This document shows positions 5,685 to 63,391 of a stretch of DNA of 64,000 nucleotides, piece by piece. The notes below the pieces were generated by a model. The model saw nothing but the letters and a program-made list of their open reading frames with translations, was not told where the DNA came from and made no database searches. Each line of letters opens with the position of its first letter. The stretch's first letter is position 1. Origin of the DNA: a virus; IMG/VR virus record IMGVR_UViG_3300036715_000153, positions 32,001-96,000 of that record; one strand, written 5' to 3'. The position numbers were made by a program, and so were the translations under genes.

Positions 5685-5719
5685 ACGGTGCATCAGTCTT
5701 TAGCTGTTACGCAGTCGAC
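5685..5719 (+). mobile_element. Degenerate solo IS605 end-hairpin element
   Basis: ggtgcat..cagtctttagctgttacgcagtcgac matches a left-end/right-end fusion of the IS at 45942-47482. Confidence 0.7.
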
Positions 5720-5874
5720 ATCATCTACAACGTATATTAGGCCGTGTATATCAATGTGGTTCATGGTCTCAGTCTACTCATAATCTGGTCTTCAGCGCTT
5801 GATTCTCTCGGTATTTAAAAGATGGGAATGAATCTTCTAGTATTCTTCAAATACTTCGATAGACACTTTACTCA

Positions 5875-6156
5875 TTATTTAACTTCCAAACACATACAAA
5901 AGTCACCATATCCACATGCCATATCAGTTCTACCAAAGAACTGCGAATAACCAGAATACCTTATAAATTCCATTATCTGAAAATATTCTCCTTGTTTAAT
6001 AGGATGTAAACATACTCTATCATATATTCTACAAATAATAACTGCAGTTCCTCCATGTGAAGCTACTGGACAAGTAGATGCATTGGCATAACTATTTGAT
6101 GCATTAGTGATTCCTGATATAGTTAGTAAAATTAAAATTAAAGTCATTTTATACAT
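5875..6156 (-). CDS. Hypothetical protein with signal-peptide-like N-terminus
   Basis: Hydrophobic N-terminus, several cysteines, AGGAG SD. Confidence 0.55.
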   Translation of the reverse strand: MYKMTLILILLTISGITNASNSYANASTCPVASHGGTAVIICRIYDRVCLHPIKQGEYFQIMEFIRYSGYSQFFGRTDMACGYGDFCMCLEVK

Positions 6157-6291
6157 TTCATTTACTCCTTACGTTGTAGTCATGTTTAATATAGCCACCG
6201 ATGCAGACCCAGTATAGACTCTTCGAGGGACATGCTAGGTATATCCGATGCCGAGTCGATCGGACAGCTTCTCCTCGGCTCTAGTTAAAAC

Positions 6292-6383
6292 TGGTGGGCA
6301 AGGTTGGAGTCGCACCAACACTTTGTCTAGCAAACTACAGATTTACAGTCTGTGGCGACTTAGCTGATATTCACCTCGTACAC
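6292..6383 (-). tRNA. tRNA-Tyr(GUA), degenerate acceptor stem
   Basis: ACAGA-CTGTAAA-TCTGT anticodon arm, long variable arm, GTTGG/CCAAC T-stem, CCA; two acceptor mismatches; T-loop TGCGACT. Confidence 0.65.
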
Positions 6384-6401
6384 GTTCTTCTTGCAAGAAA
6401 T

Positions 6402-6465
6402 TGGCGGCTCCTGCCCCGCTCTATGTGGTTATGAGCCACATGTGCATCTTATACACTACCTCGCA
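6402..6465 (-). pseudogene. Chimeric or truncated tRNA-Met(CAU) remnant
   Basis: 5' half intact (D-arm, TGTGG-CTCATAA-CCACA); T-arm missing; non-matching 3' end AGGAGCCGCCA. Confidence 0.65.
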
Positions 6466-6475
6466 ATTGTAAAAC

Positions 6476-6550
6476 TGGTCTCTCCTGTCAGAATCGGACT
6501 GACGATTTCTGCGTCCCAAACACAGCGACTTACCACTAGCCTAAAGAGAG
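6476..6550 (-). tRNA. tRNA-Pro(UGG)
   Basis: CTCTCTT/AGGAGAG acceptor, CTGTG-TTTGGGA-CGCAG anticodon arm, CCA. Confidence 0.88.
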
Positions 6551-6559
6551 ATAAAACTT

Positions 6560-6634
6560 AAATCAACTATCTGGAATCGAACCAGTCTCGCACTAATAAG
6601 TTAGCCGCTCTGCCGATGAGCTATTAGTTGATTT
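6560..6634 (-). ncRNA. tRNA-like RNA with shortened anticodon loop and no CCA
   Basis: GCTC/GAGC D-arm, CTGG-TTCGATT-CCAG T-arm, GCTAA-CTTA-TTAGT arm, 10-bp terminal stem. Confidence 0.6.
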
Positions 6635-6641
6635 ATAAAAA

Positions 6642-6717
6642 TGGCTCCCCAGCGTGGGCTCGAACCACGGACCTAACGATTAACAGTCGTTTGCTCTACC
6701 TACTGAGCTACTGAGGA
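6642..6717 (-). tRNA. tRNA-Asn(GUU)
   Basis: Canonical cloverleaf, AACGA-CTGTTAA-TCGTT anticodon arm, CCA. Confidence 0.95.
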
Positions 6718-6828
6718 ATTGTTTAATTTGTATGGCAGACACACGAACACTGTGTCCCTTAAACGCTATTATGATACAAAACTTGGTTTGACCTGTTGGC
6801 GTATCTGCTAACCAAAAGTCGAAATATC

Positions 6829-6915
6829 TGGTGCGAGAGACGGGGGTCGAACCCGTATGTCTTTACGGACGAGAGATTTTAAGTCTCTTGAGTATACCAA
6901 TTTCTCCACTCTCGC
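6829..6915 (-). tRNA. tRNA-Leu(UAA)
   Basis: GCGAGAG/CTCTCGC acceptor, AGAGA-CTTAAAA-TCTCT anticodon arm, long variable arm, CCA. Confidence 0.93.
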
Positions 6916-6943
6916 GTGTAATTAACTTTACATGTTGCCGAAT

Positions 6944-7056
6944 TGTTTAGTAAAACAGTATTATCGCCCTGATTCGAACAGGAAAGTCGATTAATCAACT
7001 GCGGTCCACGCTAGGAGAAGGCCTTCCCCTTTGCGATAACACTGTTTTACTAAACA
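6944..7056 (-). ncRNA. tRNA-like structured RNA with ~24-bp terminal stem
   Basis: Long terminal stem with a G.U pair on the minus strand; encloses hairpins and a CCTG-TTCGAAT-CAGG T-arm. Confidence 0.65.
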
Positions 7057-7167
7057 CCCTCTCTCGAAGATGTAAGACTTAAATTATCAAAGAACGTTTA
7101 CTGTATCCCATTAACTGAGAATTCGACTTAATAGTTTAAAAGTCTGTGTTGCTCAGTTCATGTAGTG

Positions 7168-7195
7168 ATTATACAGTCTTTTAGGAAATAGTCAA
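7168..7195 (-). promoter_or_regulatory. sigma70-type promoter of the tRNA cluster
   Basis: TTGACT-N16-TATAAT; IHF-like box at 7216-7228. Confidence 0.78.
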
Positions 7196-7245
7196 CCTAA
7201 TTAGCAACTTTCTTGTAAGTCAATGATTCATTTAGATCGCTTAAG

Positions 7246-7275
7246 AAAAAGCCCCGTGTATCGCTACGCAGGGCC
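7246..7275 (-). terminator. Terminator after gp46
   Basis: GC-rich hairpin followed by U-tract on the minus strand. Confidence 0.65.
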
Positions 7276-7332
7276 CAAGATATCGCGCATATTCATTTCT
7301 TCACAAAATGAATAATCTGGAAAAATATACGT

Positions 7333-9054
7333 TTAAACGATGCGACTAAAGTTTCCTTGTTTTTCTATTGTAATAACAGACCTACAATATGAAGATATAA
7401 GATCTGGTTTGTGGCTAATGATCCACACATTACTTTCTTCGCCCACTTCTTTCATTAAAGACATGACGGACTCTACGTCAGAGGCAGACAATGCTGAATC
7501 TATAACCTCGTCGAAGAAGATTAGGTTTGTGCTTACAGCGTTTCTACTCATTGCAACCTTACGCCACGCTAGGGTGATTGCAAGCCCTATCCTAGATTGT
7601 TCGCCTTGACTAAGGCTACCAAACGACATACTGTCTCTGAACCTAGCCAATATAGTTTCTTCGAACTCTTCATTTAATGAGAACCTCATGTGGAATCCCA
7701 TCGTATCTAAATATCTGTTAATGGTATCGTTGAGTAAAGGTATATACGACTTAATAATAGTAGACTTGATGCCGTCCTCTTTCAAAAACTGTTGTGCTAC
7801 TTGTATATATCTATTTTCTTCACCCAGCGCAGCCTTATGTTCAACTAAAGCTGACACCTCATCGTGTAGTGAAACGATACGCTGTGCTATATCCTTAACC
7901 ATCTCTGTACCTTGAGTAGAGACGGTCCTTAGATCATGCTCTTTACTCTGCAACGACTTAGTATGTACGTCTAGCGATAGTTTCAGTGAAACTGCCTGCT
8001 GCTTTAGCGTTGATAAGTTCGACTCTATTAATTCTAACTCTTTTAATGACCCTAACATGTCTTCGATATTACTGTTTAATATTGAAGTCTGCTTATCAAT
8101 GGAACTTAACTCGGCTTCCCTTACCTCGATTAACTTTGACGCGTGGTCGGTGTCGATAGACTGAGCACACGCCGGACACGATGTATTAGAATTAAAGAAC
8201 CCTATGTCTGTTTTAAGAAAATTGCTTCGATTAGATAGTTTCTGCAATGCAGCGCGAAGGTTATCTAGTTCTTCAGTTATATGGCTCTTATTAACCATAC
8301 TAGATGCTATCGTCATTGCAGTGGAGGCTAACTCCGTTAAGTCTGAATTAATTTCGGCAATTCTTATTTTTTCAGATTCAACTTGATCTTTAATTAATTG
8401 TACTCTCGATTCATCTTGTGACTGTAAGGTAATAAGATTATCTTTAAGACCTTTAATAGATGTTTTGAGTCCTACTATTGTGGATTCCGTAGTAGTTATG
8501 TTATTCTTAATCTCAGATTGAAGTTCTCGCGATTTAACCAGCATCTTCTGGAAAATACCTGTACCTAGAATTTCATCTACAAACAATCTCCTGTCAGATG
8601 CCTTTAACCAAAGGAATGGGCTGTAGTTAGCGTAGCCTAACACAACAACTTGAACCCACGTCTTATAACTAATGTTAAGTATAGTCTCCTCTAGGTAAGA
8701 CTGATAGTCTCGTACATGTGCAGATTGATCTACTAATACACCGTCGATATATATTTCAAAAACAGAAGGCTTTAGACCACGCACAACAACATAATCTGTC
8801 GTGCCAATCTTAAATGACACCTTAGTCTCGCAGTCTTTTAGATTAACAGTGTTAGTCATATCTTTTTTAGATATGTTCCTGAACGGGACACCATACAAAC
8901 AAAAAGTGACTGCTTCTAGGATTGTACTTTTTCCAGACCCAGATACGCCCTGTACTAGGGTAGTGGGTGAGCGGTTTAGTTGTATAGTAGTAGGAGTATT
9001 CCCAAAACTCAGGAAGTTTTTAAAGGTTACTTCTGTAAAATTAATATGAGGCAC
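7333..9054 (-). CDS. gp46: Recombination endonuclease ATPase subunit (Rad50/SbcC-like)
   Basis: FKNFLSFGN, Walker A GVSGSGKS, CPAC zinc hook, LSQGE signature, FFDE. Confidence 0.95.
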   Translation of the reverse strand: MPHINFTEVTFKNFLSFGNTPTTIQLNRSPTTLVQGVSGSGKSTILEAVTFCLYGVPFRNISKKDMTNTVNLKDCETKVSFKIGTTDYVVVRGLKPSVFEIYIDGVLVDQSAHVRDYQSYLEETILNISYKTWVQVVVLGYANYSPFLWLKASDRRLFVDEILGTGIFQKMLVKSRELQSEIKNNITTTESTIVGLKTSIKGLKDNLITLQSQDESRVQLIKDQVESEKIRIAEINSDLTELASTAMTIASSMVNKSHITEELDNLRAALQKLSNRSNFLKTDIGFFNSNTSCPACAQSIDTDHASKLIEVREAELSSIDKQTSILNSNIEDMLGSLKELELIESNLSTLKQQAVSLKLSLDVHTKSLQSKEHDLRTVSTQGTEMVKDIAQRIVSLHDEVSALVEHKAALGEENRYIQVAQQFLKEDGIKSTIIKSYIPLLNDTINRYLDTMGFHMRFSLNEEFEETILARFRDSMSFGSLSQGEQSRIGLAITLAWRKVAMSRNAVSTNLIFFDEVIDSALSASDVESVMSLMKEVGEESNVWIISHKPDLISSYCRSVITIEKQGNFSRIV

Positions 9055-10133
9055 TAGATTATAGATTCCTGTAAGGTCTTATCATAGATATCTTTCATTA
9101 ACGTCTTCAACTTATCTTTATCTATTGAATCTGTATCCTGTAGTCCATCTATAGCTGAAGAAATAACAACGTTTATGTTTGTGACTGTATCAGATACAAC
9201 GCTGTCCTTATATGCAGAGTTTAATAATATTGTTTCGTCTACTACCGACAGCTCTGCTGGGTTTTGATTAGATATATAAGACATGACGCTCTCGAACCCT
9301 AGTACGTCTGTCTTACTACGAACTATAAGTTTAACAAACTTATTAGATAAACTCAACTGCTTAATGCTATCGAGAATATCTGTATCTACAGAATCATTAT
9401 ACACGATGCGATTAAATAGCTTGTCGGTATATTCGTAGGGAACGAGTTCCATCGTTTCTGTATCTATCGTATGAAAATATTTCTTATCAAATACGTCTGC
9501 CCAACTCATATCATACGCAGTTCCTAAGTAATATATATTCTCACGTTGGGACTTGCTGTGGTAATGACCAGATAATACTTTGTTAAACGTCTGGAATGGC
9601 TCCATCGTCATCCCATCAGTAGATACAACTCCGGCGTGCATTAAAAACCCAGAACATTCTAGATGAGCACACAAGATGTCCGCAGATGAATTTTCTATAA
9701 TAGATTTGTATTCATTATAATGTTGATTTTGCATCCAGGGAACCATTAAGAATTCAGTAGAGTCGAATTTAATAGTAACCGGTTTATCTACGACAGTTAT
9801 GTTTGGGTAGTGGTCGGTGTCTAATAAAGTAGTGAGCGAGTTAACCTCGTTAGTGTTTCTGAAATAAACATCATGATTACCACATATTACCGTAAGTTTA
9901 ATTCCTCTAGCTTTAAGCACATCGAAGAACCGAGTCCTAAATAAAGTGAGTGTTTTGATATTAACGGATGCTCGAACGTCGAACATATCCCCTAGATGAA
10001 ATATCTGGGTAATGTTGTTCTCCTGGATATAGTCTAGTATATACTCGTGAAACTTTAAGATGTGCTGTTCTACTATATTATGAGAACTGCGGGCACCGAG
10101 GTGTGTATCAGTTAATAAAAGTATTTTACTCAT
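9054..10133 (-). CDS. gp47: Recombination endonuclease nuclease subunit (Mre11-like)
   Basis: TDTHLG, GDMFD, GNHD, SGHYH; adjacent to gp46. Confidence 0.95.
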   Translation of the reverse strand: MSKILLLTDTHLGARSSHNIVEQHILKFHEYILDYIQENNITQIFHLGDMFDVRASVNIKTLTLFRTRFFDVLKARGIKLTVICGNHDVYFRNTNEVNSLTTLLDTDHYPNITVVDKPVTIKFDSTEFLMVPWMQNQHYNEYKSIIENSSADILCAHLECSGFLMHAGVVSTDGMTMEPFQTFNKVLSGHYHSKSQRENIYYLGTAYDMSWADVFDKKYFHTIDTETMELVPYEYTDKLFNRIVYNDSVDTDILDSIKQLSLSNKFVKLIVRSKTDVLGFESVMSYISNQNPAELSVVDETILLNSAYKDSVVSDTVTNINVVISSAIDGLQDTDSIDKDKLKTLMKDIYDKTLQESII

Positions 10134-10755
10134 CTGTGGGACTCATGATGTCTTCTACGGATCTCATTTCATGTTGCTCGAGTTTTTTAAGTCTTGACGC
10201 CTTAACAGAATCTTCGTGTTTAGCAATAACGTCAGATGACCTAAGTTGTAGTAACTCAGTAGACACATTAACAAAGTGCGAGTCTTCGTCTTGAAGCTCT
10301 TGAGATATATCGTCTAACAACGTGCCCAGAGAACTGGCAATATATGCCTTAACCAGCGTTTGATGTTTTTCCTTTTTGATTCTGAAGATAAAAGAATTAA
10401 AACACGCTTGTGTGAAGTATGCGAACGGATTATCTCTATTTCGATAATCGAATTTGTGGACATATTGTATCATGTTAGCCACCGCGTCTGCTACCATCTC
10501 GTCTTTATACGAGTAATTGATAAAGTTGTGCTTTCTACTGTTAAACATAGCAATATCACTAAACACTTTACCAATTGCATTAGGAATCTGAGGTATTGGT
10601 AATCCTGCCGCTAGAGCATCTTCTCGCTTAATTAGATATTCTTTAATGTCTGCATAAAACTTTTCGTTATCTACATAATTAAACTTAGGATCCGCTTTCG
10701 CAGTCTTTGCTACGCCGCCTTGTTTTAATGTTTTACGGGTTTCGTATATTGCCAT
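10126..10755 (-). CDS. gp55: Late transcription sigma factor
   Basis: NYVDN, NFINYSYKDEMVADA, NPFAYFTQ motifs. Confidence 0.93.
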   Translation of the reverse strand: MAIYETRKTLKQGGVAKTAKADPKFNYVDNEKFYADIKEYLIKREDALAAGLPIPQIPNAIGKVFSDIAMFNSRKHNFINYSYKDEMVADAVANMIQYVHKFDYRNRDNPFAYFTQACFNSFIFRIKKEKHQTLVKAYIASSLGTLLDDISQELQDEDSHFVNVSTELLQLRSSDVIAKHEDSVKASRLKKLEQHEMRSVEDIMSPTDE

Positions 10756-10838
10756 GGGAGTGAAATGATTAGTTAGTTAGAGTATTAATATTAACACGCA
10801 ACCATCTAACTGTCAACCTAATCCTTGCTGTTAGAAAA

Positions 10839-10919
10839 AAATAGGTTGACAAGCGAAAAAAAAGGTGTAATAATCTATAGATAGGTAAGTACATACGGCT
10901 GCCGCCCAATGCTATGTAT
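10839..10919 (+). repeat. 81-bp promoter-plus-hairpin cassette, copy 1
   Basis: Identical to the reverse complement of 62775-62855. Confidence 0.9.
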
Positions 10920-10940
10920 TTACTGCAAATATGTTACTAG

Positions 10941-12455
10941 CTAGAGATTAATACTTCTGATTCTAAAGTTCATCTCTTGTTCTGCATATATGCTGAATCT
11001 ATGCTGAGCATGACTTAATGAGAAGTTTGGCTTAGACTGTTCAAAGTTATCAAACAAGTCATACACAGTACATTCTTCTTTATCTGATGCTAATCTAAGA
11101 CCTCTACCTATTGATTGAAGTATTCTAACAATAGACTTAGAAGATGAACTAAATATTATATTGTGTATTCTCTTAACCGAAACTCCAGTTGACATAGTAC
11201 CACTCGAGGCAAGAACGATTGCGTTATCCTCTTTCTCTACGATCGATCGTATATCATTTCTTTCAGAACCCTCGACACCTCCGTGTATATAGAATATACT
11301 TCTATCTGGTAATTCTGAGGTAAGCAATTCATTAAGAACGTCTCCGTGTTCCTCGATACGATTAAACAGAACGAGCGTATTACCCTTTAAGTTCTTAACT
11401 AGATTTAATATAAAGTTATTGCGTTTCTCGAATCCATTTAAGAATGATGTTTCTGCTTGATAGTCCAAACTCTTAGTATAGCTTTTCGTATCTGTTGGGT
11501 ATTTCAACTCTATACATTCTATCTTGAGAGGCGATACTCTACCAGACTCTGTTGCCTGTTTAATCGACTGTATTTTGACTACAGGTCCCAGACTAGACTT
11601 AATTACCATTTCGTTGGTTAGTGATCCGTCTAGCGTACCTGTCAATCCTATCTTATATTCAGCCTGAGTGCAAGCATTGACTAATTTCTGTAAGCTATCT
11701 CCCTTAGCCAAATGACACTCGTCGACAACTACCGATTTAAACTGTTCGAAGAACTCAAAGTCTTTTGCTTTGTAGATAGGCAGAAGAGATTGCCAGGTGC
11801 TGATTAAGATTTGAGTCTTACCAGTATATGAATATTCTGAATACAACTTCTCGACGTTGTGTTCTACGATCCATTCGTCATCTAGCTCCGAATAGTCCTT
11901 GAAGTCCCCATACAGTTGTTCTACTAATGATACAGATGGTACAATGATTAATAGTTTGTCTGTTGTGAGTTCTTGTAACAGTCGGTTAATTAGGTATATC
12001 GAGGCAGACTTACCAGTTGATGTGGCAGACAGGAATACTTGACGTTTGTGTTTAATTGCATAATACGCCATCTTGAGTTGGTAGTCGTACGCGTTAATCA
12101 CATTACCCCCAGATGAGAGAGGGATATTCTTTAATGCAGATGTGAACATGTCCTTAGAAACGATTGGATTGGAAAAACACTCAACCACTTCTTTGTCTAT
12201 CGAGATATTATATCCACGATCAGTTACGAACTTAGATAGTTCTGGAACGAGCCCCACGGGTAAAGTAGACTTCGCAGAATTATATAAACGGATCTTTCCA
12301 TCCCAACGTCTTGCCTTAACTAAGGGGTGGTGTTTGGCATTTTCTATGTAGAACGAAAACGTTTCAGATAGCTCCATCCTGACATCGTCTGGACAGTGGA
12401 TCTTTACGTTTGAGTTATTTAAGAATGATACTTTGATGGTTTCCATAATACTCAT
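10941..12455 (-). CDS. uvsW: SF2 DNA/RNA helicase
   Basis: WDGKIRLY, ATSTGKS, DECH, GLTGT, QSIGRGLR. Confidence 0.95.
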   Translation of the reverse strand: MSIMETIKVSFLNNSNVKIHCPDDVRMELSETFSFYIENAKHHPLVKARRWDGKIRLYNSAKSTLPVGLVPELSKFVTDRGYNISIDKEVVECFSNPIVSKDMFTSALKNIPLSSGGNVINAYDYQLKMAYYAIKHKRQVFLSATSTGKSASIYLINRLLQELTTDKLLIIVPSVSLVEQLYGDFKDYSELDDEWIVEHNVEKLYSEYSYTGKTQILISTWQSLLPIYKAKDFEFFEQFKSVVVDECHLAKGDSLQKLVNACTQAEYKIGLTGTLDGSLTNEMVIKSSLGPVVKIQSIKQATESGRVSPLKIECIELKYPTDTKSYTKSLDYQAETSFLNGFEKRNNFILNLVKNLKGNTLVLFNRIEEHGDVLNELLTSELPDRSIFYIHGGVEGSERNDIRSIVEKEDNAIVLASSGTMSTGVSVKRIHNIIFSSSSKSIVRILQSIGRGLRLASDKEECTVYDLFDNFEQSKPNFSLSHAQHRFSIYAEQEMNFRIRSINL

Positions 12456-12488
12456 TTAGTGGAGAACTAAACAGAGTTAGGTATTAGG

Positions 12489-12563
12489 AAAAGTGTGAAA
12501 ATGACGGTTGTAAGTTACTGATTATAATGGGGAAAAAATCACAAATTTCACGATTTTTCCAAT
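12489..12563 (+). repeat. ~75-bp intergenic element with IHF box, copy 1
   Basis: Similar to the reverse complement of 49551-49626; a second IHF box lies at 12622-12634. Confidence 0.7.
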
Positions 12564-12640
12564 CTACGTATCTACGACTGTATTTTAAGTCTTATCTCGA
12601 CGTTAAAGTGCGAGATAATTGTAAGTCATTGATTTTAATA

Positions 12641-13066: not shown

Positions 13067-13111
13067 GTTAGTATTTAATGTAGAAATTTACATTAAAGTT
13101 TACTACATCTA

Positions 13112-13833: not shown

Positions 13834-13859
13834 AATAGGATCAGATTAATTGAGTTCAA

Positions 13860-27874: not shown

Positions 27875-27886
27875 ACTATTATTTAT

Positions 27887-27930
27887 ACGAGCATAAACGT
27901 AACAGCCTTTTTAGCTGTTACGCGGTCTAC
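27887..27930 (+). mobile_element. Solo IS605 end-hairpin element
   Basis: gcataaacgtaacagc-ctttt-tagctgttacgcggtctac following TTTAT. Confidence 0.75.
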
Positions 27931-42078: not shown

Positions 42079-42159
42079 TTATTATTTCCTTTACTGTGGA
42101 ACCTCTCAGTTCCTATTGAAGTCTGGTTAAAATCGTTAACCAATCAACATTTTATTTAT

Positions 42160-42205
42160 AACAGGTGCATAAAACGTAACAGTCTTTAGCTGTTACGCAG
42201 CCGAC
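42160..42205 (+). mobile_element. Solo IS605 end-hairpin element (best preserved copy)
   Basis: ggtgcataaaacgtaacagtctttagctgttacg is identical to the IS left end; it ends cagccgac like the right end; follows TTTAT. Confidence 0.85.
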
Positions 42206-42206
42206 T

Positions 42207-43592
42207 TTATATATCCGACGACAATATAATTTTATTTGTGGCAGTATTATTGTTTCTTAGTCCGCAAACCTGTCCTGTGACTAAACCAGAAGCAACATTA
42301 ATAATTAGATTTAACTTGTTGGTGTCTGCAGTTGCCGAGCCGTTTATAGCAATAGAAGTAGTTGTTACTCTACTAACCCCCACCTCTAACTCGAATAGGT
42401 TAGCAGTAAGTGTATTTTCTATCACAGGGATAGATATCATCCCACGAACATCAACCTCGACCAGTGCGCTTGATGCAGATATACACTGACCATTTCCAAT
42501 TTGTCCATATAACGAAGTATTACCTATGTTTCGTACACGCTCCTGACACCTAGCCAACATCTCAGCTCTGCTAACTGAGGCTGATGTGGGTTGAGTGCCT
42601 TTATTAATTCTCATGTTTGAAATAGCCCAGACGTTTCCTACTGTAGCTAGGTCGTTAACTTGGTTGGCAGTGCATCTATAACCTCCTGCTATCCACTGAT
42701 CGACTGATGCGGTTTGATAAGTAGAACCGCCAGAATGAGATATCATTAATCTTACTCCAATCCCTGTAGTATAATTCCACGTTCCAGCAGTGGGTAATCC
42801 ACCTACTACAGTAAATTGATATTCATTCCACGTGTTTGCTACGGCGACATTAATCTCATGTACATAGGATAGATCGGCACCACTATTTGTGAGCGCTACG
42901 CCATGAATACCAGCAAGCGGAAATTTTGCCCAGAATGCTACCGTGAAGGTATTACCAACTAGATCGTAATTAACAATATCGTAGCCTGTAATTTTATGGT
43001 TATCCACCATCGTATCGCTTGCCACAGTTGTAGTATCTGCCGTTGTGACTGTAACTTGCCGCGATTTTCTACCCGTCGTATGACCAGTTCCTTGACTTAC
43101 ATCTAATACTGCTGATGTCGAATTTCCATTTGACCAACCATCAAGATCGCCTGCTGTATTTGCCGCTGATACAAAGCTAGTCCCGCGCTGAGCAATATCA
43201 AAATTTGGATTCAAGGCAGCGTTGGGCGTGGAGATTGTTGCCCCATTAATTGTTGAGGCGGAGAACTGCTGAGCAGAATCGCCGGCTAGATTAGCTTTAC
43301 CTGCAAGCAACACATCTGCATCAGATTTGCTATAACTGTTTACAGGTGCATCGGCGTATCTAGCAAGTGCAAATACCTCGTCACCTACCGATAGCGGAAC
43401 AGTCATTGTAAAGGAAGTACCACTAGTAGCAGTATAATCCACAGCACTCGATTGAATTGCTCCGTTTACGAATACATCTAAAAAACCAGGAGTATATCCA
43501 ATATTGAATACTGTCTGTCCAGCAGTAGCAACAACGGTTTGTCTATTCTCGTTGTTGGATGACGAAACGGGCTCTTTACCGATATATGACAT
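42207..43592 (-). CDS. Tail fibre protein
   Basis: ATAGQTVF..Y.PGFLDVFVNG..DYTATSG; NPNFDIAQRG...ELARCQ-type domain. Confidence 0.75.
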   Translation of the reverse strand: MSYIGKEPVSSSNNENRQTVVATAGQTVFNIGYTPGFLDVFVNGAIQSSAVDYTATSGTSFTMTVPLSVGDEVFALARYADAPVNSYSKSDADVLLAGKANLAGDSAQQFSASTINGATISTPNAALNPNFDIAQRGTSFVSAANTAGDLDGWSNGNSTSAVLDVSQGTGHTTGRKSRQVTVTTADTTTVASDTMVDNHKITGYDIVNYDLVGNTFTVAFWAKFPLAGIHGVALTNSGADLSYVHEINVAVANTWNEYQFTVVGGLPTAGTWNYTTGIGVRLMISHSGGSTYQTASVDQWIAGGYRCTANQVNDLATVGNVWAISNMRINKGTQPTSASVSRAEMLARCQERVRNIGNTSLYGQIGNGQCISASSALVEVDVRGMISIPVIENTLTANLFELEVGVSRVTTTSIAINGSATADTNKLNLIINVASGLVTGQVCGLRNNNTATNKIILSSDI

Positions 43593-44367: not shown

Positions 44368-45813
44368 TTAGTTGACGTTATGCCAAACTATTCCACCACG
44401 AACTTCTGTTTCTGGTTCGTCTCTCGCCATCGCAATAGATAGTATCTGTGGTAACATATCGTGTGCTAGTCTATCTTTATATGCAGCTAATACTGCCGCT
44501 CTCGCATCGCTGTTGTTGAGCGATTTAAAATATTCTTGAGTTGTAGCCCAAGCAAATAACACGATCGTCATAACCATATCGTCGTGTGCATTATCGTCTG
44601 CCTCGTACGAAGATCCTTTACTAATAAACGTAGAGAACTCTGAAATCGTCGCTTCGTCGTTTATAATAAGCAAGTCTGACTCGATAATCTGTTTTGCATT
44701 CGAACAACCGATGCGCTTCGTACGCTTGTCTGTCCTCAATCCGTTCTGCTGTTGCATTGATGCACCAGACATTAACTGTTGTCCGTGTTTAGTAGATTGC
44801 CCTACCCACGCAACGTTCTCGTAACCAAACTCATATACTAGCGTATCTGCGACTTGTTTACCCGTAGACTGAATCTCAATCAATACAAATGCTGTGTTAT
44901 ATTTAGTTGCAGTTTGATATATGAAGTCCGGGAATACCATAGGATTCATTCTATTATTCTTATACGTTGCGACCTGATTATACGGTTTAGCCGTAATGTC
45001 TATTACGCTGAATGCAGACGAATCCCCACCCACACCTTCAGAGCAGTCGACTGTCATCATGTATTGGTGACCTTCAATCGGGGATTGGTATATTTTTAAA
45101 TTGTTATGAATTAGTTCTGGATTAGCGTGTACTAGCTTGCGTAGTGTTTGTGAGTTTAATAGCGTACCAGATGAACCGATAAACTCTGCACCAAACTCTT
45201 GGTCGAACGTTTCTTGACCAATGTTAGAAATCGTATCTGCTTTCCATTTCTCATCTCTACCCGGTACGTCCCACCAGTTGATAGAGTTGGCTACGAACAG
45301 CGAACGTTTTGACTCCGCGTCTACCCACAGCTTATAGAAATGATTCAGACCTTTGGGTGTAGACACCAAGATAACCTTAGTTTCTTGACCAGATGAAATA
45401 GTGGGATATACTGAGTCCCAGAACTCTGCCCACTGAGTGCCCATGATAAAAGCTACCTCGTCTACAAACAGCAGACTGATGGACGTATTGTGTGAAACTA
45501 TTCCGTTGGCATAATATTTATTATCTTTAACCACGAATGCAGGATCGTACATCTTCTTACTACAGTTTATAATAGTTTTACTCGATACTTTACTTATACC
45601 CGATTCTGTCACTAACGCTGCACCATTGCGAATAGATGATGCCTTTTTCCATCCTCGATCAGTCATTAACGGGTGGTTGGGAGTTACTTCTATAGAATTA
45701 CCATTGATTGTCTCGAATTTAATAGTTTCGTCTGTGTCATATACAGCGACACCCGAAAAATCGGACCACCCGTCTGGTGTAAGTATTTCCCAATCGGTGT
45801 TATTTAGAAACAC
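44368..45813 (-). CDS. gp17: Large terminase C-terminal half fused to split-intein IntC
   Basis: The first 109 aa are IntC (TPNHP block B, ending YYANGIVSHN). Then TSISLLFVDE Walker B, STPKGLNHFY, nuclease VDCSEG and HDDMVM. GTG start. Confidence 0.93.
   Translation of the reverse strand: MFLNNTDWEILTPDGWSDFSGVAVYDTDETIKFETINGNSIEVTPNHPLMTDRGWKKASSIRNGAALVTESGISKVSSKTIINCSKKMYDPAFVVKDNKYYANGIVSHNTSISLLFVDEVAFIMGTQWAEFWDSVYPTISSGQETKVILVSTPKGLNHFYKLWVDAESKRSLFVANSINWWDVPGRDEKWKADTISNIGQETFDQEFGAEFIGSSGTLLNSQTLRKLVHANPELIHNNLKIYQSPIEGHQYMMTVDCSEGVGGDSSAFSVIDITAKPYNQVATYKNNRMNPMVFPDFIYQTATKYNTAFVLIEIQSTGKQVADTLVYEFGYENVAWVGQSTKHGQQLMSGASMQQQNGLRTDKRTKRIGCSNAKQIIESDLLIINDEATISEFSTFISKGSSYEADDNAHDDMVMTIVLFAWATTQEYFKSLNNSDARAAVLAAYKDRLAHDMLPQILSIAMARDEPETEVRGGIVWHNVN
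45487..45813 (-). other. Split intein C-fragment (IntC, 109 aa; +1 residue Thr)
   Basis: Terminal His-Asn followed by Thr; resembles the AceL-TerL type IntC. Confidence 0.9.
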
Positions 45814-45988
45814 GAATCCGCCCGAGCTGGTAAGAAGTTAACTAACAAGTCGTGACGGTCATGCATCACTTCCCCGTGATTTACATCGATCGACAGCTTA
45901 GTTATGTAAAATGATTGAGTCATCATTGAAATCTCCTTTATCTTTGGTGCATAAAACGTAACAGTCTTTAGCTGTTACGATGTAGCAC

Positions 45989-46135
45989 CTATCCCTGATT
46001 TAAAATATACTGTTTTACTGTCTCCGTTGATGCTTGTCCAGTCGATGCTACAAAATATCCATTAGACCAAAAAGTTCTTTCTTTCCAAAAATATTTAGAA
46101 AGATCAAAATGTTTCCAAATTTCAATAGTTGTTTT
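45989..46135 (-). pseudogene. tnpA: C-terminal remnant of IS200 Y1 transposase
   Basis: Translates ...FWKERTFWSNGYFVASTGQASTETVKQYILNQG*; HUH-containing N-terminus absent; nearest ATG (46139) is out of frame. Confidence 0.88.
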
Positions 46136-47329
46136 CCATAATATATTATTTAGTGAAATATATTTTCAATTTATAGTGAAATATTAAAAATGATAACTAA
46201 ATAGTAGTATGGAATTCAAAGCATACAAATTCAGAATATACCCAACAAAGGAACAAGAGAAAACTCTTGCTAAGTTCTTTGGTGCCAAACGATGGATTTT
46301 TAATCATTATCTTCACGAAAATAAACAACGCTTTCAGAATAAAGAAAAGCACCTTTCTAATTTCGATATTAACTATGATATTACAACTCTTAAAACATTA
46401 GAAGAAACTTCTTGGTTAAAAGAAATTGATTCTATATTACTACAGAACGCCAGTGAAGATTTACACACTGCATATTCGAATTTCTTTAATTCTATAACTG
46501 GTAAACGTAAAGGTCCTTCTATTTCGATCCCTAAGTATAAGTCGAAATATGATAAACAATCATATCGTACTCGCGGTGTAAAGGTGAACTTCGACGATAA
46601 TATAATAACTTTACCAAAAATTAAGAAAGTCAAGGCAGCTATTCATCGTAAATTCACTGGTAATATTAAATCATCGACAGTTTCAAAAACTGCATCTGGT
46701 CAGTATTATATTTCAATACTCGTTGAGGAAGATATTAAACTACTTCCTGCATCTGGTATCGAAATTGGTATTGATCTTGGTATCAAAGACTTGTGTATTT
46801 TGTCTAATGGTATCAAGTTTCAATCTCCTAGAATATTACTAGCAAAAGCCACGCTAGAATTAAAGAAGCAACAACGTAAACTAAGTAGAAAGCAAAAGAA
46901 TTCTAAAAATAGAGCCAAGCAGAAAATTAAGGTAGCTAAAGCATATCAACGAATAACAAATATTCGTAATGCTTACTATCACGAAATTTCTAATTATCTC
47001 GTTACGAATTTCGATGCAATATACATGGAAAGTCTCAATGTAAAAGGAATGCTAAAGAATCGTAAATTAAGTAGATCAATTCAAGAGTCTAGTTGGTCGA
47101 CATTAGTTAATATGATTCAATATAAAGCAGGATTTTACGGTAAAACTTTTCATCAAATTGGTAGATTTGTTCCTTCGACAAAAACATGTTCGTGCTGTAA
47201 TCATAAATTAGATTCGATTTCTCTTTCTACTAGAGAATGGTCTTGTCCGGTGTGCAATACACTTCACGACAGAGACCTGAATGCAGCATCGAATATTAAA
47301 AATTTCGGTCAATTAGATGTATATGATCG

Positions 47330-48560
<1,231 letters not shown>

Positions 48561-53792: not shown

Positions 53793-53793
53793 G

Positions 53794-53976: not shown

Positions 53977-53978
53977 TG

Positions 53979-57422: not shown

Positions 57423-57508
57423 CGGATATTCCTGTTATCGGTTAATGTAGAATTTAGTTATTATTATTCCGTATTTGAGTCAACTAAGTAGTTGTTTCTG
57501 ATATTATA

Positions 57509-58801
57509 TCAGAAAGATAAAATTATGGAAATCGACTCGCGCTGATCTAACGAACGGTTAACTAAACGTCTGTAGTCTTTGTAGAACAGAATTCCACTGT
57601 TAGGCTTAATCTGGGAATTTGTCTTTGCAATAGTACCACCAGCAAATGCAGCAGATGTACCACCCGTAACAGTGTTAGATGTATCGAATGTTCCCAGTAC
57701 ATTATTGAGTCGTAGTGTCTTTGTACTTGCATTCCAATCTATAACAGTTCCCGACGCCCCTGTTACTGCCTGCGTTACCGTTTCATCACCCACAAAGGCC
57801 CCAGAAGCTGTAGTGAATACTAGGTGCGTGGATGCATCCAATGTAGTAGCAGTGGCAACGGTGTTGGTTCCGTATAACAATGGATTTTTAATAATAACAA
57901 TCTTACGATAGTCGTTATCTACTGAGAACACACCACCTTCGTCCAAGTTAAGTACAGTGTTTAGCATGGAATAAGAGGCAAATAATTCGTTCTCTATATC
58001 TTTACCGTGACCGCCGAATGGACTAATAATTGCTCTAGCGGCTGCTGCACCAGATCCAAATGCAACTGTAGCATACGTATAACCAGATCCGATAGAGTTA
58101 ACCACGATATGATCGATTGGCTGATTGCCGCTGCCTACTACCAATACTGCCGTAGCTGTACAGCCTGTACCGTCGCCGGTCACTGTAACTGACGGAGGAG
58201 TTGCATACGAACCAGCTGTAGTAACCTTAATGGTGTGAATCGCACCATCGACCGCTGCCTGTTGTGTAGCCCATTGATTGGAACCATCCGACACAGTCAG
58301 CGTCTGAACTGGTATCCAATTCTGACTAGGGAATGAATTCAACTTAGAGGCTGTAATAGTGGTCATGTATTTCCATACATATCCATCAGATGTACTAAAG
58401 GTAGATGTAGAATATCCAGTCGGTTGACTTGTAGATAAGGCACCCTTGTTATTGTCTATACACTTATACACGTCATATGAGCTGTTAGTGACATAGAACG
58501 TCTTGGTGTTTAGTGTATTATCTGCATCGTCGTACATATCATACACAGTGTTGACTGCCCATGTATGGATTGGGACAGATGCTGTAACACCGGCAGCAGT
58601 AATTCTCTTTAATGATAACAAATCTCTGTAGTCTGTTACCAGTTGACCAAATGAATCCGACGGTGTATCTGGAGATGACTCGGTAGTCCATGGAGTTTGT
58701 TTACCAATACCGAGATAATATGTATCTGCCCCAGAAGCAATAGCTGCTCTTAGTTGTTGTGATTGGATAATTCTGTATGAGTTTGTGATATATGCAGTCA
58801 A
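57509..58801 (-). CDS. gp8: Baseplate wedge subunit
   Basis: VYKCIDNN, DGYVWKYM, PFGGHG, NDYRKI. Confidence 0.88.
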   Translation of the reverse strand: MTAYITNSYRIIQSQQLRAAIASGADTYYLGIGKQTPWTTESSPDTPSDSFGQLVTDYRDLLSLKRITAAGVTASVPIHTWAVNTVYDMYDDADNTLNTKTFYVTNSSYDVYKCIDNNKGALSTSQPTGYSTSTFSTSDGYVWKYMTTITASKLNSFPSQNWIPVQTLTVSDGSNQWATQQAAVDGAIHTIKVTTAGSYATPPSVTVTGDGTGCTATAVLVVGSGNQPIDHIVVNSIGSGYTYATVAFGSGAAAARAIISPFGGHGKDIENELFASYSMLNTVLNLDEGGVFSVDNDYRKIVIIKNPLLYGTNTVATATTLDASTHLVFTTASGAFVGDETVTQAVTGASGTVIDWNASTKTLRLNNVLGTFDTSNTVTGGTSAAFAGGTIAKTNSQIKPNSGILFYKDYRRLVNRSLDQRESISIILSF

Positions 58802-58843
58802 TGTAGTATGCCCCTATTGTAATTTCTATAATTTAGTTTATGG

Positions 58844-60535
58844 TTAGAATCTAGGATATATGACGTTCAATGACCCGTCCAGTCTATAGTGTTCGGCGTC
58901 TGGTAGATAATGTATTCTCGAACTTCTTAGCGGTTCGCTATTGACGGACACGTCCGAACTCCATGACCGGATTGTATCTGACGCAAAGTCCTTTATGGAC
59001 CTAGTATAAAAATTGAATTTCCAATCTTCTACCTTATATCTAGGCACATTGAAAGGTATATCTGGGGACTTCTCTATCATGATTATCGAATCCCTGCCAC
59101 CCACTACAGGAATGTCGATACTAGATGTAGCCGATATCAAGAAGTTCAATATGCCTCGATATAGATACCCACCGCGTTCATCCAACTCGTTGATCGTTCC
59201 AATATTAATACCGATGGACGCCAATTCCTCTATGGCTAGTTCACCGAATAAAGCCATACCAGCAGGATGTAGAATATCCTTTAAATACGACTTATAATTA
59301 CTTAGAGCATGACCGGACCTAATGACATACGAATATGGCATGTACTCTCTGTCGTTTTGTAGTATCGCCGTTTTGTCAGAAGTCATGCCATTCGTGGATA
59401 AAAACCTTCCACTATATAAACACAGTGTACCTATAGACCCAGTACCTATTGCTATCTCATCACCGACATAAGTAGGCAACGATTGTGTAAACTGTACAAT
59501 CGGGGTAATTGTGTTATAGTCAGACCCGAATGACTTTATGTCCACTGTCTTGATCTTACCTATATTTGTTCCATTAGCGATCAGTACAGCTCCAGACCCA
59601 CCACCTGTTTGAGAAGCACATGATAGGGTTGGTCGTTCTTTAAACAAAGATTGCGACCTGAATATTTGTACCGATGCTATTTGGCCTTGTAAAGAAACCC
59701 CCGGTACATACGATGTGATATCTGTTACCCTTGCCTCAAAAGCAGATGGAGGCACAGTTGTGATCATGTCTCCTACAGCGTAGAATGATCCTGGATCGAG
59801 AATGGTGATCGAGTCTATCTTTCCAGACTCAACCTCTTCTACCTCCACAGCTAACCCTACACCGTCACCGCCAGATACTAGACCAGAATCTCCTTTTCTA
59901 TAATATTGTCCAGTGGTAGACATTGTAACAGAAGTGATAGCAGACAAGACAGTCGACGTATAACCATTGACTAATACTGTTTCCCCATATAGAAAAGTCC
60001 CAGTTATCCCACTGATAAATATTTCATATATCAAGTGAAGACCACTGTAATAACTAACAACCGATTCAATTCGGGCAATTGCGCCAGATGCATTCGTAAC
60101 CGAATACCCAGCAGAATTCACAATAAGTGGATTGTCACATGTTACCTTGATACTTGTCCGCTTTAACCAACTACTATCGGACGAGTTGAACAATTGATTC
60201 GACGGATAAGATATCGAAGCCGACTCACCATAGACTGTTCTGAATAACAGCTTAACCGATTCCTCTGTACCCTTTGAGCCATAGAACTCGCGAGCGTGCT
60301 TAATGAATGACCGTTTATCTGCGACTATCTCAGGAGGCAATACAAACAGGTATTGGTTGACAAAGTTTGTTAGGAAGTTTTCTGTAGTTTGATCTACATC
60401 GAGTGTAGTTTTTAATTCTTGATGATTATTCGACAACCACTCATAGTATGCACTAAGGAAGTCTACAAATCCTGGAGCATCTTCCTTTATGAATTGTGGT
60501 ATTCTTGCTAATGATGACTGACCAAGATAACTCAT
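58844..60535 (-). CDS. gp7: Baseplate wedge subunit (gp7-like)
   Basis: FLSAYYEWL, FYGSKGTEESVKLLFR, YSYVIRS, HPAGMALFG. Confidence 0.85.
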   Translation of the reverse strand: MSYLGQSSLARIPQFIKEDAPGFVDFLSAYYEWLSNNHQELKTTLDVDQTTENFLTNFVNQYLFVLPPEIVADKRSFIKHAREFYGSKGTEESVKLLFRTVYGESASISYPSNQLFNSSDSSWLKRTSIKVTCDNPLIVNSAGYSVTNASGAIARIESVVSYYSGLHLIYEIFISGITGTFLYGETVLVNGYTSTVLSAITSVTMSTTGQYYRKGDSGLVSGGDGVGLAVEVEEVESGKIDSITILDPGSFYAVGDMITTVPPSAFEARVTDITSYVPGVSLQGQIASVQIFRSQSLFKERPTLSCASQTGGGSGAVLIANGTNIGKIKTVDIKSFGSDYNTITPIVQFTQSLPTYVGDEIAIGTGSIGTLCLYSGRFLSTNGMTSDKTAILQNDREYMPYSYVIRSGHALSNYKSYLKDILHPAGMALFGELAIEELASIGINIGTINELDERGGYLYRGILNFLISATSSIDIPVVGGRDSIIMIEKSPDIPFNVPRYKVEDWKFNFYTRSIKDFASDTIRSWSSDVSVNSEPLRSSRIHYLPDAEHYRLDGSLNVIYPRF

Positions 60536-60539
60536 TATG

Positions 60540-62306
60540 TTATACCGATGCTAATATTGAAACAGTGGTCTTGTTGATATCAATACTCAACACTTGATTA
60601 AACACAGAGATAACCTCACTATGTTTTGGTGTTGCTGTTATAGCGAATTGAGTTTCACCTAAAATCATGGTTGGCTTAAAGTTTGATAAAATAACCTCCC
60701 CAGTGATATAATCCACTGTGCCATAAACCTCTGACGTATAGAATACAGTTTGGTCAGACTTAATATAGTATCCATACAACTTACCATCGACGTCTGTCAG
60801 TCTAAACTGTTGATCAGCCGAGTATGAAGGGATAATGATATTTGTTGATTGTATGCTTCTAGGTTGTATTTCTGTTCTAAACTTATATTTATAGGTCGAT
60901 GCAGCAGCGGTAACAGGCAACGATATCTTCATGGATATCTGTAATACTGTACCGGTGAATGAAGGATCGACTTTATCAATCAATGCAGTTAGCGTAGACA
61001 GTTGGAAGTTACCACCAAAACTCTTTAAGTAAGTATCGTTGTAATATGATATTTTAGTCAACACTTGACTATGTAAAGTCTCTGGTGTGGATACAGTTAA
61101 ATGTCTATTTGACCGAACATAGCCATCTAAAGTTATAGTGATAATCTCAGGATCAATTATGACCGGCTTAATGGACATTACGCTACGTTGCTTAATAACC
61201 TGCTCCAACACCTTTTTAGATTCGGTGGACAGAGGTCTCAAATCTTCAGGCAGAACAGAGCAAAATACCTTACCAACCATAGGAGGGTCATTATCCTCAC
61301 CGCCCCAAACCTGAACAGACTTCAAATGCGGGTAGTCTTGAATAATATGAGTCGAATAGTCGTGTGGTGTCACTGATCTATATTGTGCAGCGTATGACTT
61401 CTTTGCATTGTCCCTGACCCTCTCAATAGATTCCTCTGTAGCACCACCGTTGGATGTCTCTGTGCAGACCGCAGTAGATGTTACGTTAGGATACAATGAA
61501 CTGTTTACCGTAAACACAGATATACCGTTACCCAAATCTCTGTTACCCACAAGATAACTCACTGAGATGATATTACCAGGGATCAAGGCTTTACTAATAA
61601 ACCCGTCACCAAAGTACAATTCATATTCACCACTACCATTCATTTGCGTGTAATACACAGGAGATGACTGGTTTAAACCTACTATGGATTCAGATTTAAA
61701 GAACTCTTCTGTGAAGTTGATAGTGGATGATGTTTGTACGGTGACTATCAGACTAGACATATCAACGCCCAGGTTAGGTATCCTGAATATCTTAGTCGTT
61801 GCGTCTACAGTATATTGGACATTGTATAATCTACCTTCTGATATTGATAACCCACTATATGTATATACGGTTGGGTCGATTGTCTGTAAAGCATTTACAT
61901 CAGAGAGGCTAACGAACTCATATGTATTTCCGTCTACGCCCTTACCACTAAACTTTGTACCACGGGACATCAATATACCTGGTGGTGTATTAAACACGCC
62001 ACTGATCGTGACATCAATAATTGCCCTTGCAGACTTAGCAGACTGTGGAGTGTAACCTAATTCTTTAGCCTTAGACACGATAGATGATTTCAACAATGCT
62101 GAGTCTAAGAATGACTCACTCAAACCCATGTGTTGATAGAACAAATATAGTTGGCTGTTCGCTGCAAGCAAATCTAATAAAACGTTAACGTTGCTACCTT
62201 CAAAGTTAATATCTTGGAAAGCATCTTGCGCAGACATATATGCCTTAAGAGAACTCTTAAGACTATCGAAGTCGATGTTTGATAAATTTAAAGCTGTGCG
62301 CGTCAT
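60540..62306 (-). CDS. gp6: Baseplate wedge subunit
   Basis: DFDSLK, ESFLDSA, LGYTP.S, FGDG, WGGEDNDPP. Confidence 0.93.
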   Translation of the reverse strand: MTRTALNLSNIDFDSLKSSLKAYMSAQDAFQDINFEGSNVNVLLDLLAANSQLYLFYQHMGLSESFLDSALLKSSIVSKAKELGYTPQSAKSARAIIDVTISGVFNTPPGILMSRGTKFSGKGVDGNTYEFVSLSDVNALQTIDPTVYTYSGLSISEGRLYNVQYTVDATTKIFRIPNLGVDMSSLIVTVQTSSTINFTEEFFKSESIVGLNQSSPVYYTQMNGSGEYELYFGDGFISKALIPGNIISVSYLVGNRDLGNGISVFTVNSSLYPNVTSTAVCTETSNGGATEESIERVRDNAKKSYAAQYRSVTPHDYSTHIIQDYPHLKSVQVWGGEDNDPPMVGKVFCSVLPEDLRPLSTESKKVLEQVIKQRSVMSIKPVIIDPEIITITLDGYVRSNRHLTVSTPETLHSQVLTKISYYNDTYLKSFGGNFQLSTLTALIDKVDPSFTGTVLQISMKISLPVTAAASTYKYKFRTEIQPRSIQSTNIIIPSYSADQQFRLTDVDGKLYGYYIKSDQTVFYTSEVYGTVDYITGEVILSNFKPTMILGETQFAITATPKHSEVISVFNQVLSIDINKTTVSILASV

Positions 62307-62341
62307 ATCTATTAATACCTAATTATATTGTGTTAATTTAG

Positions 62342-62752
62342 TTATCTAGAACGTTCTATTGCTATTTCCAGTCTAACTGGATTTGACGTGTTTATGATAG
62401 TAAACACAATATTAACCAAGGCTTCGTAATCATCATTATTAATACTTACGTCAATACTGTTAATGATTACCCTAGGTTCATATATAGATATGATATCGGA
62501 TAAGTTTCGTTTTAGGATAGCACCGGTCAAAATATCTACATTTTCAAATAACAGTCGTCTGACGTTAGATGCGATATCTGGATGAAATGGTTTATCACCG
62601 GTATTGAATTGAATTAGATTTCTAAGAGACTGTTTGACAGCATTTTCATCAGTCTTGAGTACTAAGTCTCCTTTACCAGAAGCAAGCACTTGTCCTGGAT
62701 GAGGTTTCATAGAAATATCTAAATCAGAGTATTTATTAGCACGAGTAGTCAT
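62342..62752 (-). CDS. gp25: Baseplate wedge / sheath initiator
   Basis: YSDLD...HP, AVKQSLRNLI, KPFHPDI, YEPRV. Confidence 0.93.
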   Translation of the reverse strand: MTTRANKYSDLDISMKPHPGQVLASGKGDLVLKTDENAVKQSLRNLIQFNTGDKPFHPDIASNVRRLLFENVDILTGAILKRNLSDIISIYEPRVIINSIDVSINNDDYEALVNIVFTIINTSNPVRLEIAIERSR

Positions 62753-62774
62753 ACTAATAATTTAGTTGGCATAG

Positions 62775-62855
62775 ATACATAGCATTGGGCGGCAGCCGTA
62801 TGTACTTACCTATCTATAGATTATTACACCTTTTTTTTCGCTTGTCAACCTATTT
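62775..62855 (-). repeat. 81-bp promoter-plus-hairpin cassette, copy 2
   Basis: Exact inverted copy of 10839-10919. Confidence 0.9.
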
Positions 62856-62862
62856 ATTTCAA

Positions 62863-63306
62863 TTATAATTTTAACATACACAATTCTTTGAACAGTTCAG
62901 GGGTTTTATTAAACCAACTCCGCATTATCTTAGCTCTAATGTTACCGTTGTAGCAGTTTTCATTAAACAGTGCTCCTGTAACGAACAAGATATGTTCTTC
63001 ACTATAAGACAGAGATGCCTTAGTGCTACAGAACATAAGTATCTCACGCTTAAACATATCCTTGCCAAGACGTTCTATCTCAGATTGCAAATAAGGTGAG
63101 GACGACCAATATTCTTCCCAATCCGAAGTTTTCCTTAGTTTCTTCTTTTTACCATTAACCATCTTAGTTGCGGCTTTGGTCAACATCTTCTTACCATAGT
63201 AGAACTTACCATTATCGACGTTCGTTATCTTATAGACAAACCCTAGAGCACCTTCAGGTATATCATCTTGTGTTATTATTTTATCTTCGAACATCCAGTT
63301 TGACAT
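62863..63306 (-). CDS. Stand-alone GIY-YIG-like nuclease domain protein common in T4-like phages
   Basis: GFVYKITN...FYYGKK...SDWEEYWSS...FKREIL...YNGNI; start taken at MSNW. Confidence 0.75.
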   Translation of the reverse strand: MSNWMFEDKIITQDDIPEGALGFVYKITNVDNGKFYYGKKMLTKAATKMVNGKKKKLRKTSDWEEYWSSSPYLQSEIERLGKDMFKREILMFCSTKASLSYSEEHILFVTGALFNENCYNGNIRAKIMRSWFNKTPELFKELCMLKL

Positions 63307-63360
63307 TTTACACTCGACCCTGTACAATTAACTAAATCAACATCCAGAACACATATTTAA

Positions 63361-63391
63361 ACAGGTGCATAAAACGTAACATGCAGTTGAC
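63361..63391 (+). mobile_element. Internally deleted solo IS605 end element
   Basis: acaggtgcataaaacgtaaca joined to tgcagttgac, following TTTAA. Confidence 0.75.

Follow-up and report, generated by a model that had tools for sequence, protein, structure and literature searches.

How does a phage genome come to hold several short, gene-less pieces of the ends of a transposable element beside one full-length copy? The question is raised by a 64,000-nt stretch of viral DNA (the window), bases 32001–96000 of the 140,394-bp IMG/VR virus record IMGVR_UViG_3300036715_000153, and by the insertion sequence (IS) of the IS200/IS605 family that lies in it. The genome holds one full IS and five stubs of 30–46 bases. 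The stubs are probably internal-deletion scars, or 'solo hairpins', left by an element of the IS200/IS605 family circulating among phages, a reading drawn from the sequences of the stubs, the resident IS and its relatives. Formation of stubs by deletion is an ordinary kind of transposon decay. The parts of the resident IS against which the stubs were compared are as follows.

45942..47482, + strand: resident element of the IS200/IS605 family, with tnpB as its only complete gene, in the gap separating the terminase large-subunit halves
45937..45941, + strand: TTTAT directly 5′ of the resident IS, putative insertion target and transposon-associated motif (TAM) of TnpB
45957..45979, + strand: left-end hairpin CGTAACAG-TCTTTAG-CTGTTACG, within an outer stem GGTGC/GCACC (45946–45989)
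45995..46150, − strand: truncated tnpA remnant, Y1_Tnp profile positions 70–121 (PF01797, 37.6 bits)
46209..47423, + strand: tnpB, 404 aa, with Pfam domains HTH_OrfB_IS605, OrfB_IS605 and Cas12f1-like_TNB
47452..47482, + strand: right-end hairpin, 23 nt identical to the left-end hairpin, and tail CAGTTGAC closing the element
47483..47500, + strand: flank TACTATTTAACATCAAGG right after the IS right end, putative target-matching segment of the guide RNA according to the ISDra2 TnpB model

At the left end, TTTAT is followed by CTTT-GGTGCATAAAA (GGTGCATAAAA from 45946), the hairpin and ATGTAGCACC; this region folded with −18.8 kcal/mol (z = −4.8). The right end consists of GGACGGAGCAAG, with GAGCAAG before the stem, the 23-nt hairpin and CAGTTGAC, and stops at 47482. 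Both end hairpins are in direct orientation, identical over 23 nt and 1.5 kb apart. The flanks, ...CTCCTTTAT and TACTATTTAAC..., share no repeat, and neither terminal inverted repeats nor a target duplication were present. Based on these sequence features, namely the presence of TnpB, subterminal hairpins at both ends and no target site duplication, the resident copy is a member of the IS200/IS605 family. The tnpA remnant, just inside the left end, comprises a C-terminal part, with the profile before position 70 unmatched. A PF01797 profile search of the 140-kb genome detected no Y1 transposase besides this remnant, and no REP-associated tyrosine transposase (RAYT; REP, repetitive extragenic palindrome) was found. 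With tnpA reduced to a remnant, the resident copy is unable to move alone. TnpB aligned over its full length with homologues of 60–76% identity, and D189, E274 and D354/D356, presumably the RuvC-type positions, as well as two CxxC pairs were invariant. Comparison with the ISDra2 TnpB structures 8EXA and 8H1J gave E = 6e-71. The tnpB product is apparently an intact RNA-guided nuclease of the ISDra2 type, as far as its sequence tells.

The five stubs are located as follows.

42160..42205, + strand: stub 1, AACA and GGTGCATAAAA, one perfect hairpin and tail CAGCCGAC; follows TTTAT (42155–42159)
27887..27930, + strand: stub 2, AC and GAGCATAAA, hairpin with changed loop CCTTTTTAG, tail CGGTCTAC; follows TTTAT (27882–27886)
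5685..5719, + strand: stub 3, AC and GGTGCAT, then CAGTCTTTAGCTGTTACG, tail CAGTCGAC; follows TTTAA
63360..63391, + strand: stub 4, AACA and GGTGCATAAAACGTAACA, TG, right tail CAGTTGAC
genome 100491–100527 (L136:4491–4527), − strand: fifth stub, outside the window, found in a scan of the whole genome

A preliminary description of the window had placed four elements at these positions on the + strand, each starting like the left end and finishing like the right end of the IS. Both points were borne out, with matches far above chance. The left-end 17-mer gave three matches with up to three mismatches (0.25 expected), the right-end 18-mer gave four (0.04 expected), and blastn-short E-values of the stub matches ranged from 1e-21 to 3e-7. 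The genome scan for the hairpin that the same description had proposed added the fifth stub.

Stub 42160 held no sequence other than a left-end 5′ part, the hairpin and a right tail (blastn-short E = 1e-21), and a single nucleotide separates its end from the stop of the gene 42207..43592 (−). The more diverged stub 27887 is wedged between the stop of a 1690-aa gene, 6 nt away, and the start of the next gene; its fold had −21.3 kcal/mol (z = −4.9). Stub 5685, which adjoins the ribosome-binding site of the open reading frame (ORF) 5404..5670 (−), has lost 9 nt (AAAACGTAA) including the left stem arm and forms no hairpin (z = 0.07). About 14–15 nt of the hairpin are gone from stub 63360–63391, again with no hairpin left (z = −0.3); it lies between a SegE-like GIY-YIG endonuclease gene (62863–63327, −; E = 1e-28) and a + strand gene. 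The fifth stub reads AACAGGTGCATAAAA-AGTAACAG-TCTTTAG-CTGTTACT, followed by AAGTATAT, with no clear right tail. It is located about 120 nt past a gene end, between + strand ORFs of 569 and 82 aa, and a compensatory C-G to A-T change at the closing stem pair has kept its 8-bp stem. A folding hairpin was thus retained in three of the five stubs (42160, 27887 and the fifth copy), with weak z-scores of −1.6 for stub 42160 and −1.7 for the fifth. The term 'solo hairpin' used in the preliminary description is therefore apt for 42160 and 27887, which fold, and not for 5685 and 63361, which have lost a stem arm or the hairpin. No two stubs were identical; in two of them the palindrome is gone, and the others carry substitutions.

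All four window stubs combine a left-end-specific start, GGTGCAT(AAAA), degenerate in 27887, with a right-end-type tail. The 3′ part of the left end, ATGTAGCACC, terminates none of them. The 5′ flank of the right end, GAGCAAG, is absent from the stubs, and the A-rich bases before the left-end stem are kept. A deletion between the two identical hairpins of the IS is predicted to leave GGTGCATAAAA-hairpin-CAGTTGAC, and stub 42160 has the same structure with two substitutions in the tail. The left/right chimeras are those expected from the collapse between identical hairpins that had been proposed before. A palindromic scar made of two right ends (RE-RE) was rejected, since the 5′ part is left-end-specific (GGTGCATAAAA) and does not match an inverted right tail.

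Derivation of the stubs from IS ends, also claimed beforehand, is supported by related elements. In L012, L047, L133, L134 and L135, whose TnpB proteins are 54–76% identical to the resident one, the right ends keep (G)AGCAAG, the loop TCTTTAG and the tail (A/T)TTGAC, and the stems differ completely. Conservation of loop and tail in relatives with different stems indicates that the hairpin belongs to the IS family. A native phage repeat captured by the IS was rejected, because even distant relatives have the same loop and tail at their right ends.

The history of the stubs would then run as follows. Full-length copies would have inserted 3′ of TTTAT or TTTAA at six or more intergenic sites, antisense to their neighbours, by means of a Y1 transposase that was either available at an earlier time or provided in trans. 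The hairpin copies would then have undergone homologous recombination or replication slippage, with the loss of about 1.5 kb containing tnpA, tnpB and the guide RNA; the left tip, a single hairpin and 8 nt of right tail would have been left. Two-end excision would be impossible for such a residue, so that it would stay put. One full copy, with TnpB intact, would have survived in the split terminase gap.

The numerical ratio of five stubs to one full copy would also be expected if the stubs were minimal, non-autonomous units resembling REPs or palindrome-associated transposable elements (PATEs), moved in trans by a transposase of host origin or of a co-infecting phage and spreading by themselves. 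The AACA 5′ end and the tail C, which are common to the stubs and absent from the resident IS, fit such units, as does a 211-kb phage record in which a stub is present and TnpB is absent. The left cleavage context, TTTAT and A-rich bases before the stem, is retained as well. The right side is different. In the IS608 model ascribed to Barabas et al. in 2008, the bases 5′ of each stem are said to direct cleavage at that end. The stubs have a single hairpin and lack GAGCAAG, the flank that would direct right-end cleavage in this model, so their right side should not be excisable. Moreover, TnpA or RAYT is absent from the genome, all copies differ from each other and two have lost the palindrome. 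The exact hairpin pattern had no match in other IMG/VR contigs, and none of the stubs was found in other viral or metagenome contigs. Compared with PATEs or miniature inverted-repeat transposable elements (MITEs), the stubs have one hairpin, no GAGCAAG and no near-identical copies, and published PATEs retain both ends (PMC7290912). Compared with REPs or REP doublets forming hairpins (REPINs), they are five singlets without a doublet, in a genome with no Y1 gene but a remnant. The missing transposase, the lack of identical copies and the two decayed palindromes favour fixed scars over active miniature elements. The minimal mobile units, which the preliminary description had offered as its alternative, are therefore disfavoured and rather unlikely.

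Several observations weigh against deletion scars. Neither a full-length nor an empty allele was seen at the stub sites, and consequently the deletion step is inferred from structure alone. Three to five stubs open with (A)ACA, the resident IS with CTTT, and the fifth tail position is C in three stubs (CAGCCGAC, CAGTCGAC and CGGTCTAC) and T in CAGTTGAC. As AACA and the tail C are absent from the resident IS, this copy is not the direct parent of the stubs, and another source copy or self-copying is needed; the features shared among the stubs would also fit self-copying. The fifth stub, with no recognisable right tail, may be a bare left end. The end hairpins of the sibling elements L134 and L012 are not identical, hence collapse is not a family-wide property.

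The search for alleles at the stub sites was limited by the distance of the relatives. The IS region had no match among GenBank phages in megablast, and the nearest relatives were only about 60–75% identical at the protein level, so there were no filled or empty orthologous alleles to compare. At the one orthologous gene end found, in L007 (73% aa identity), the stop is not followed by a hairpin; the DNA beyond it is unalignable and L007 can therefore not count as an empty allele.

Remnants of related elements were detected in other phages. In the 211-kb phage record (G005), a stub at L049:1277–1309 (G005:68311–68341) consists of GCAAGGAAA-hairpin-TAGTTGAC with a left-type 5′ part, directly after a strong intrinsic terminator, and no TnpB match was found anywhere in G005. 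According to its sequence, this stub is an independent example of the one-hairpin build. A PATE-like element of about 370 nt in L128 (~9090–9480) has a left-type hairpin and a right end (CAAG, hairpin and TAGTTGAC) without tnpB, and it may retain the guide-RNA scaffold. L012 showed a second right-tail relic 30 nt past a right end. Together, the remnants in L049, L128 and L012 indicate that decay products of this TnpB family are common in phage contigs. An internally deleted tnpB in G006 (L140) was set aside as a member of a different TnpB subfamily. In L047 (2261–3682), the right end of a full TnpB element is followed immediately by a fragment (aa 322–372) of a second tnpB in the same orientation, an arrangement that could be a nested insertion or a product of unequal recombination.

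The best cellular TnpB homologues among 185,579 species genomes were 43–45% identical, compared with 55–76% for homologues on metagenome contigs, several of which are large and phage-like. From these identities, the TnpB clade seems to be phage-resident.

Target sites were examined for a common motif. The preliminary description had suggested TTTAW, and in fact TTTAT or TTTAA precedes each window element by 2–4 bases. At the IS, 42160 and 27887, the distance from TTTAT to GGTGC or GAGC is 4, 4 and 2 nt, respectively; the remaining three sites have TTTAA or are ambiguous by 1–2 nt. In L134:1–1963, a phage tRNA-Met(CAT) gene is split in its variable loop by a sibling IS (TnpB 76% identical) that lies directly after TTTAT. 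The intact locus gave no ARAGORN call, and in-silico removal between TTTAT and ...TTGAC led ARAGORN to call tRNA-Met(CAT). A 4-nt repeat, CGCA, makes the L134 boundary ambiguous by 0–4 nt, and it was set at TTTAT because the TTGAC end is family-wide. The restored tRNA, together with TTTAT at the IS, 42160 and 27887, makes TTTAT a candidate target that is well supported by sequence comparison. The broader TTTAW is plausible on the same kind of evidence. The gene downstream in L134 is homologous to genome positions 101457–101828 of the phage.

All IS-derived insertions (6 of 6) are antisense to the local genes. Nearly all window genes are on the minus strand, and the fifth stub, which lies where the genes run the other way, is itself inverted. 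In intergenic DNA, the antisense strand had 1.6 times as many TTTAT/TTTAA motifs as the other strand. This target strand bias was rejected as the full cause of the antisense orientation, as a 1.6-fold difference explains the uniform orientation only in part. With the fifth stub outside the window, at least six insertion events were counted; the preliminary description had expected at least five.

On the gene strand, the intact stubs present an 8-bp stem with four G-C pairs followed by TTTTAT. Whatever their origin, they could have been co-opted as weak terminators or REP-like 3′ stabilisers of mRNA. The distances from gene ends are in agreement with this, with 1 and 6 nt after stop codons for 42160 and 27887 and about 120 nt for the fifth stub, whose compensatory change preserved the stem. 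The same hairpin with TTTTAT at the IS left end was flagged as terminator-like, and IS605 stem-loops are conserved at gene 3′ ends in Borrelia (PMC2775950). Against a terminator, the T-run has four bases only, and terminator-like matches in the region numbered 12 versus 10.8 expected in shuffles, with 42160 not flagged. The fold z-scores of 42160 and the fifth stub are weak, and two stubs decayed freely. Co-option as terminator or stabiliser is thus possible but unsupported and, on balance, unlikely. A link to T4-type late promoters was also considered, because two stubs abut TATAAATA on the gene strand, and dismissed, as the motif is not enriched in the genome (10 versus about 17 expected).

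Persistence of the stubs could alternatively be due to resistance against TnpB. As homing-resistant alleles, they would keep the TAM away from the former right flank, and the TnpB and guide of a co-infecting phage could neither cut nor convert the site. This reasoning follows published TnpB homing (PMC10055086). In this genome, the resident TnpB appears intact and a stub does lie between TTTAT and the right flank. Yet the sole putative guide segment of the genome, directly after 47482, is directed at the terminase gap and has no counterpart among the stub flanks, which leaves TnpB immunity without bearing in this genome. By this logic, immunity would be relevant only if a co-infecting phage had the complete element at the position of the stub, and phages of this kind are not known. 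In addition, any remnant or point mutation would protect equally, so the stub form stays unexplained. Persistence as resistant alleles is very improbable. More generally, it is improbable that the stubs are anything but inert, whether a Y1 transposase in trans still moves them, which would make them the smallest mobile unit known to derive from IS605 and the phage equivalent of REPs, or they are kept as blocks to TnpB homing between co-infecting phages. In the latter case, they would amount to naturally occurring alleles that resist an RNA-guided gene drive.

Known systems share some features with the resident IS and the stubs. The resident IS resembles the ISDra2 type of the IS200/IS605 family, whose transposition is of the single-strand, peel-and-paste kind, in its TnpB with HTH, OrfB_IS605 and zinc-finger domains, its subterminal hairpins, the lack of inverted repeats and target duplication, the apparent insertion 3′ of an AT-rich pentanucleotide and the Y1-type tnpA remnant. 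Unlike ISDra2, the resident copy has a truncated tnpA and is non-autonomous, its putative target is TTTAT instead of TTGAT, and its TnpB clade is phage-borne. On Borrelia plasmids, free-standing IS605 stem-loops without a transposase gene occur in intergenic positions or at gene 3′ ends, some of them with compensatory changes, and it was left open if they are remnants or mobile (Delihas 2009, PMC2775950). Those loops are left ends or right ends separately and are located on plasmids, whereas the stubs are left/right chimeras around one shared hairpin in a lytic T4-like phage. The chimeric build indicates a specific deletion route. Halanaerobium hydrogeniformans has a 271-nt, PATE-like element consisting of ends only (PMC7290912). 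PATEs are likewise gene-less IS200/IS605 derivatives formed by internal deletion. They have two ends with their own hairpins and are considered mobilisable in trans; a stub, in contrast, has only a single hairpin, and the 5′ flank of the right end is missing. The nearest analogy for the deletion is the solo long terminal repeat (LTR), where identical direct terminal repeats recombine, the interior is lost and one repeat remains with the outer flanks. In the stubs, the repeat is a 23-nt hairpin instead of several hundred bp, and element class and chemistry are unrelated.

IS605 stem-loops that stand alone and elements reduced to their ends have been published before, and the phage stubs are a variant with an unusually readable origin. 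They leave the current understanding of the IS200/IS605 family unchanged and would provide a clean sequence-level example of the death of a TnpB element in a phage genome, in which identical end hairpins allow the element to shrink to about 42 nt, a stub that preserves a trace of the insertion. For annotation, such stubs can be mistaken for regulatory hairpins. They also count past invasions, at least six here, and give candidate TnpB target motifs without an assay. The TnpB clade seems to belong mainly to large phages, a setting in which RNA-guided homing between co-infecting genomes could be tested.

The terminase gap that holds the surviving copy separates an N-half (47463..48107, −) from a C-half (44368..45813, −) of the large subunit. 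The final six codons and the stop of the N-half fall within the IS right end. The N-half matched Terminase_6N profile positions 6–94, and the C-half matched Terminase_6N 95–213 and Terminase_6C, with additional weak HINT/intein matches. In the relatives L223, L224 and L225 (N-half 60–70% identical), the same gap is filled by a homing-endonuclease gene of the NUMOD3 or GIY-YIG type, located on the gene strand. Given the IS here and homing-endonuclease genes in L223, L224 and L225, different selfish nucleases use the same terminase gap.

The record has direct terminal repeats and 40% G+C. Gene content and order of the 140-kb phage are T4-like, and the terminase is of the T4 type. The contig with the closest TnpB homologue (P0001) encodes SMC_N and Metallophos proteins (T4 gp46/gp47-like), UvsW, UvsY, Gp23 and a prohead protease. 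Its gene order appears to be the same as that of the phage, in a comparison by ORF sizes. A further TCTTTAG-loop hairpin at genome 115837–115857 (+), with a perfect but different 7-bp stem, lies in an ORF beginning with MKSYSDYLVE and has neither end flank; it was not counted and is probably a chance occurrence. The region around stub 5685 comprises small ORFs and RNA genes. Here, Rfam matches were a permuted or beta-type tmRNA and five tRNA genes at 4515–4874 (−), 2920–3090 (−) and 6479–6915 (−).

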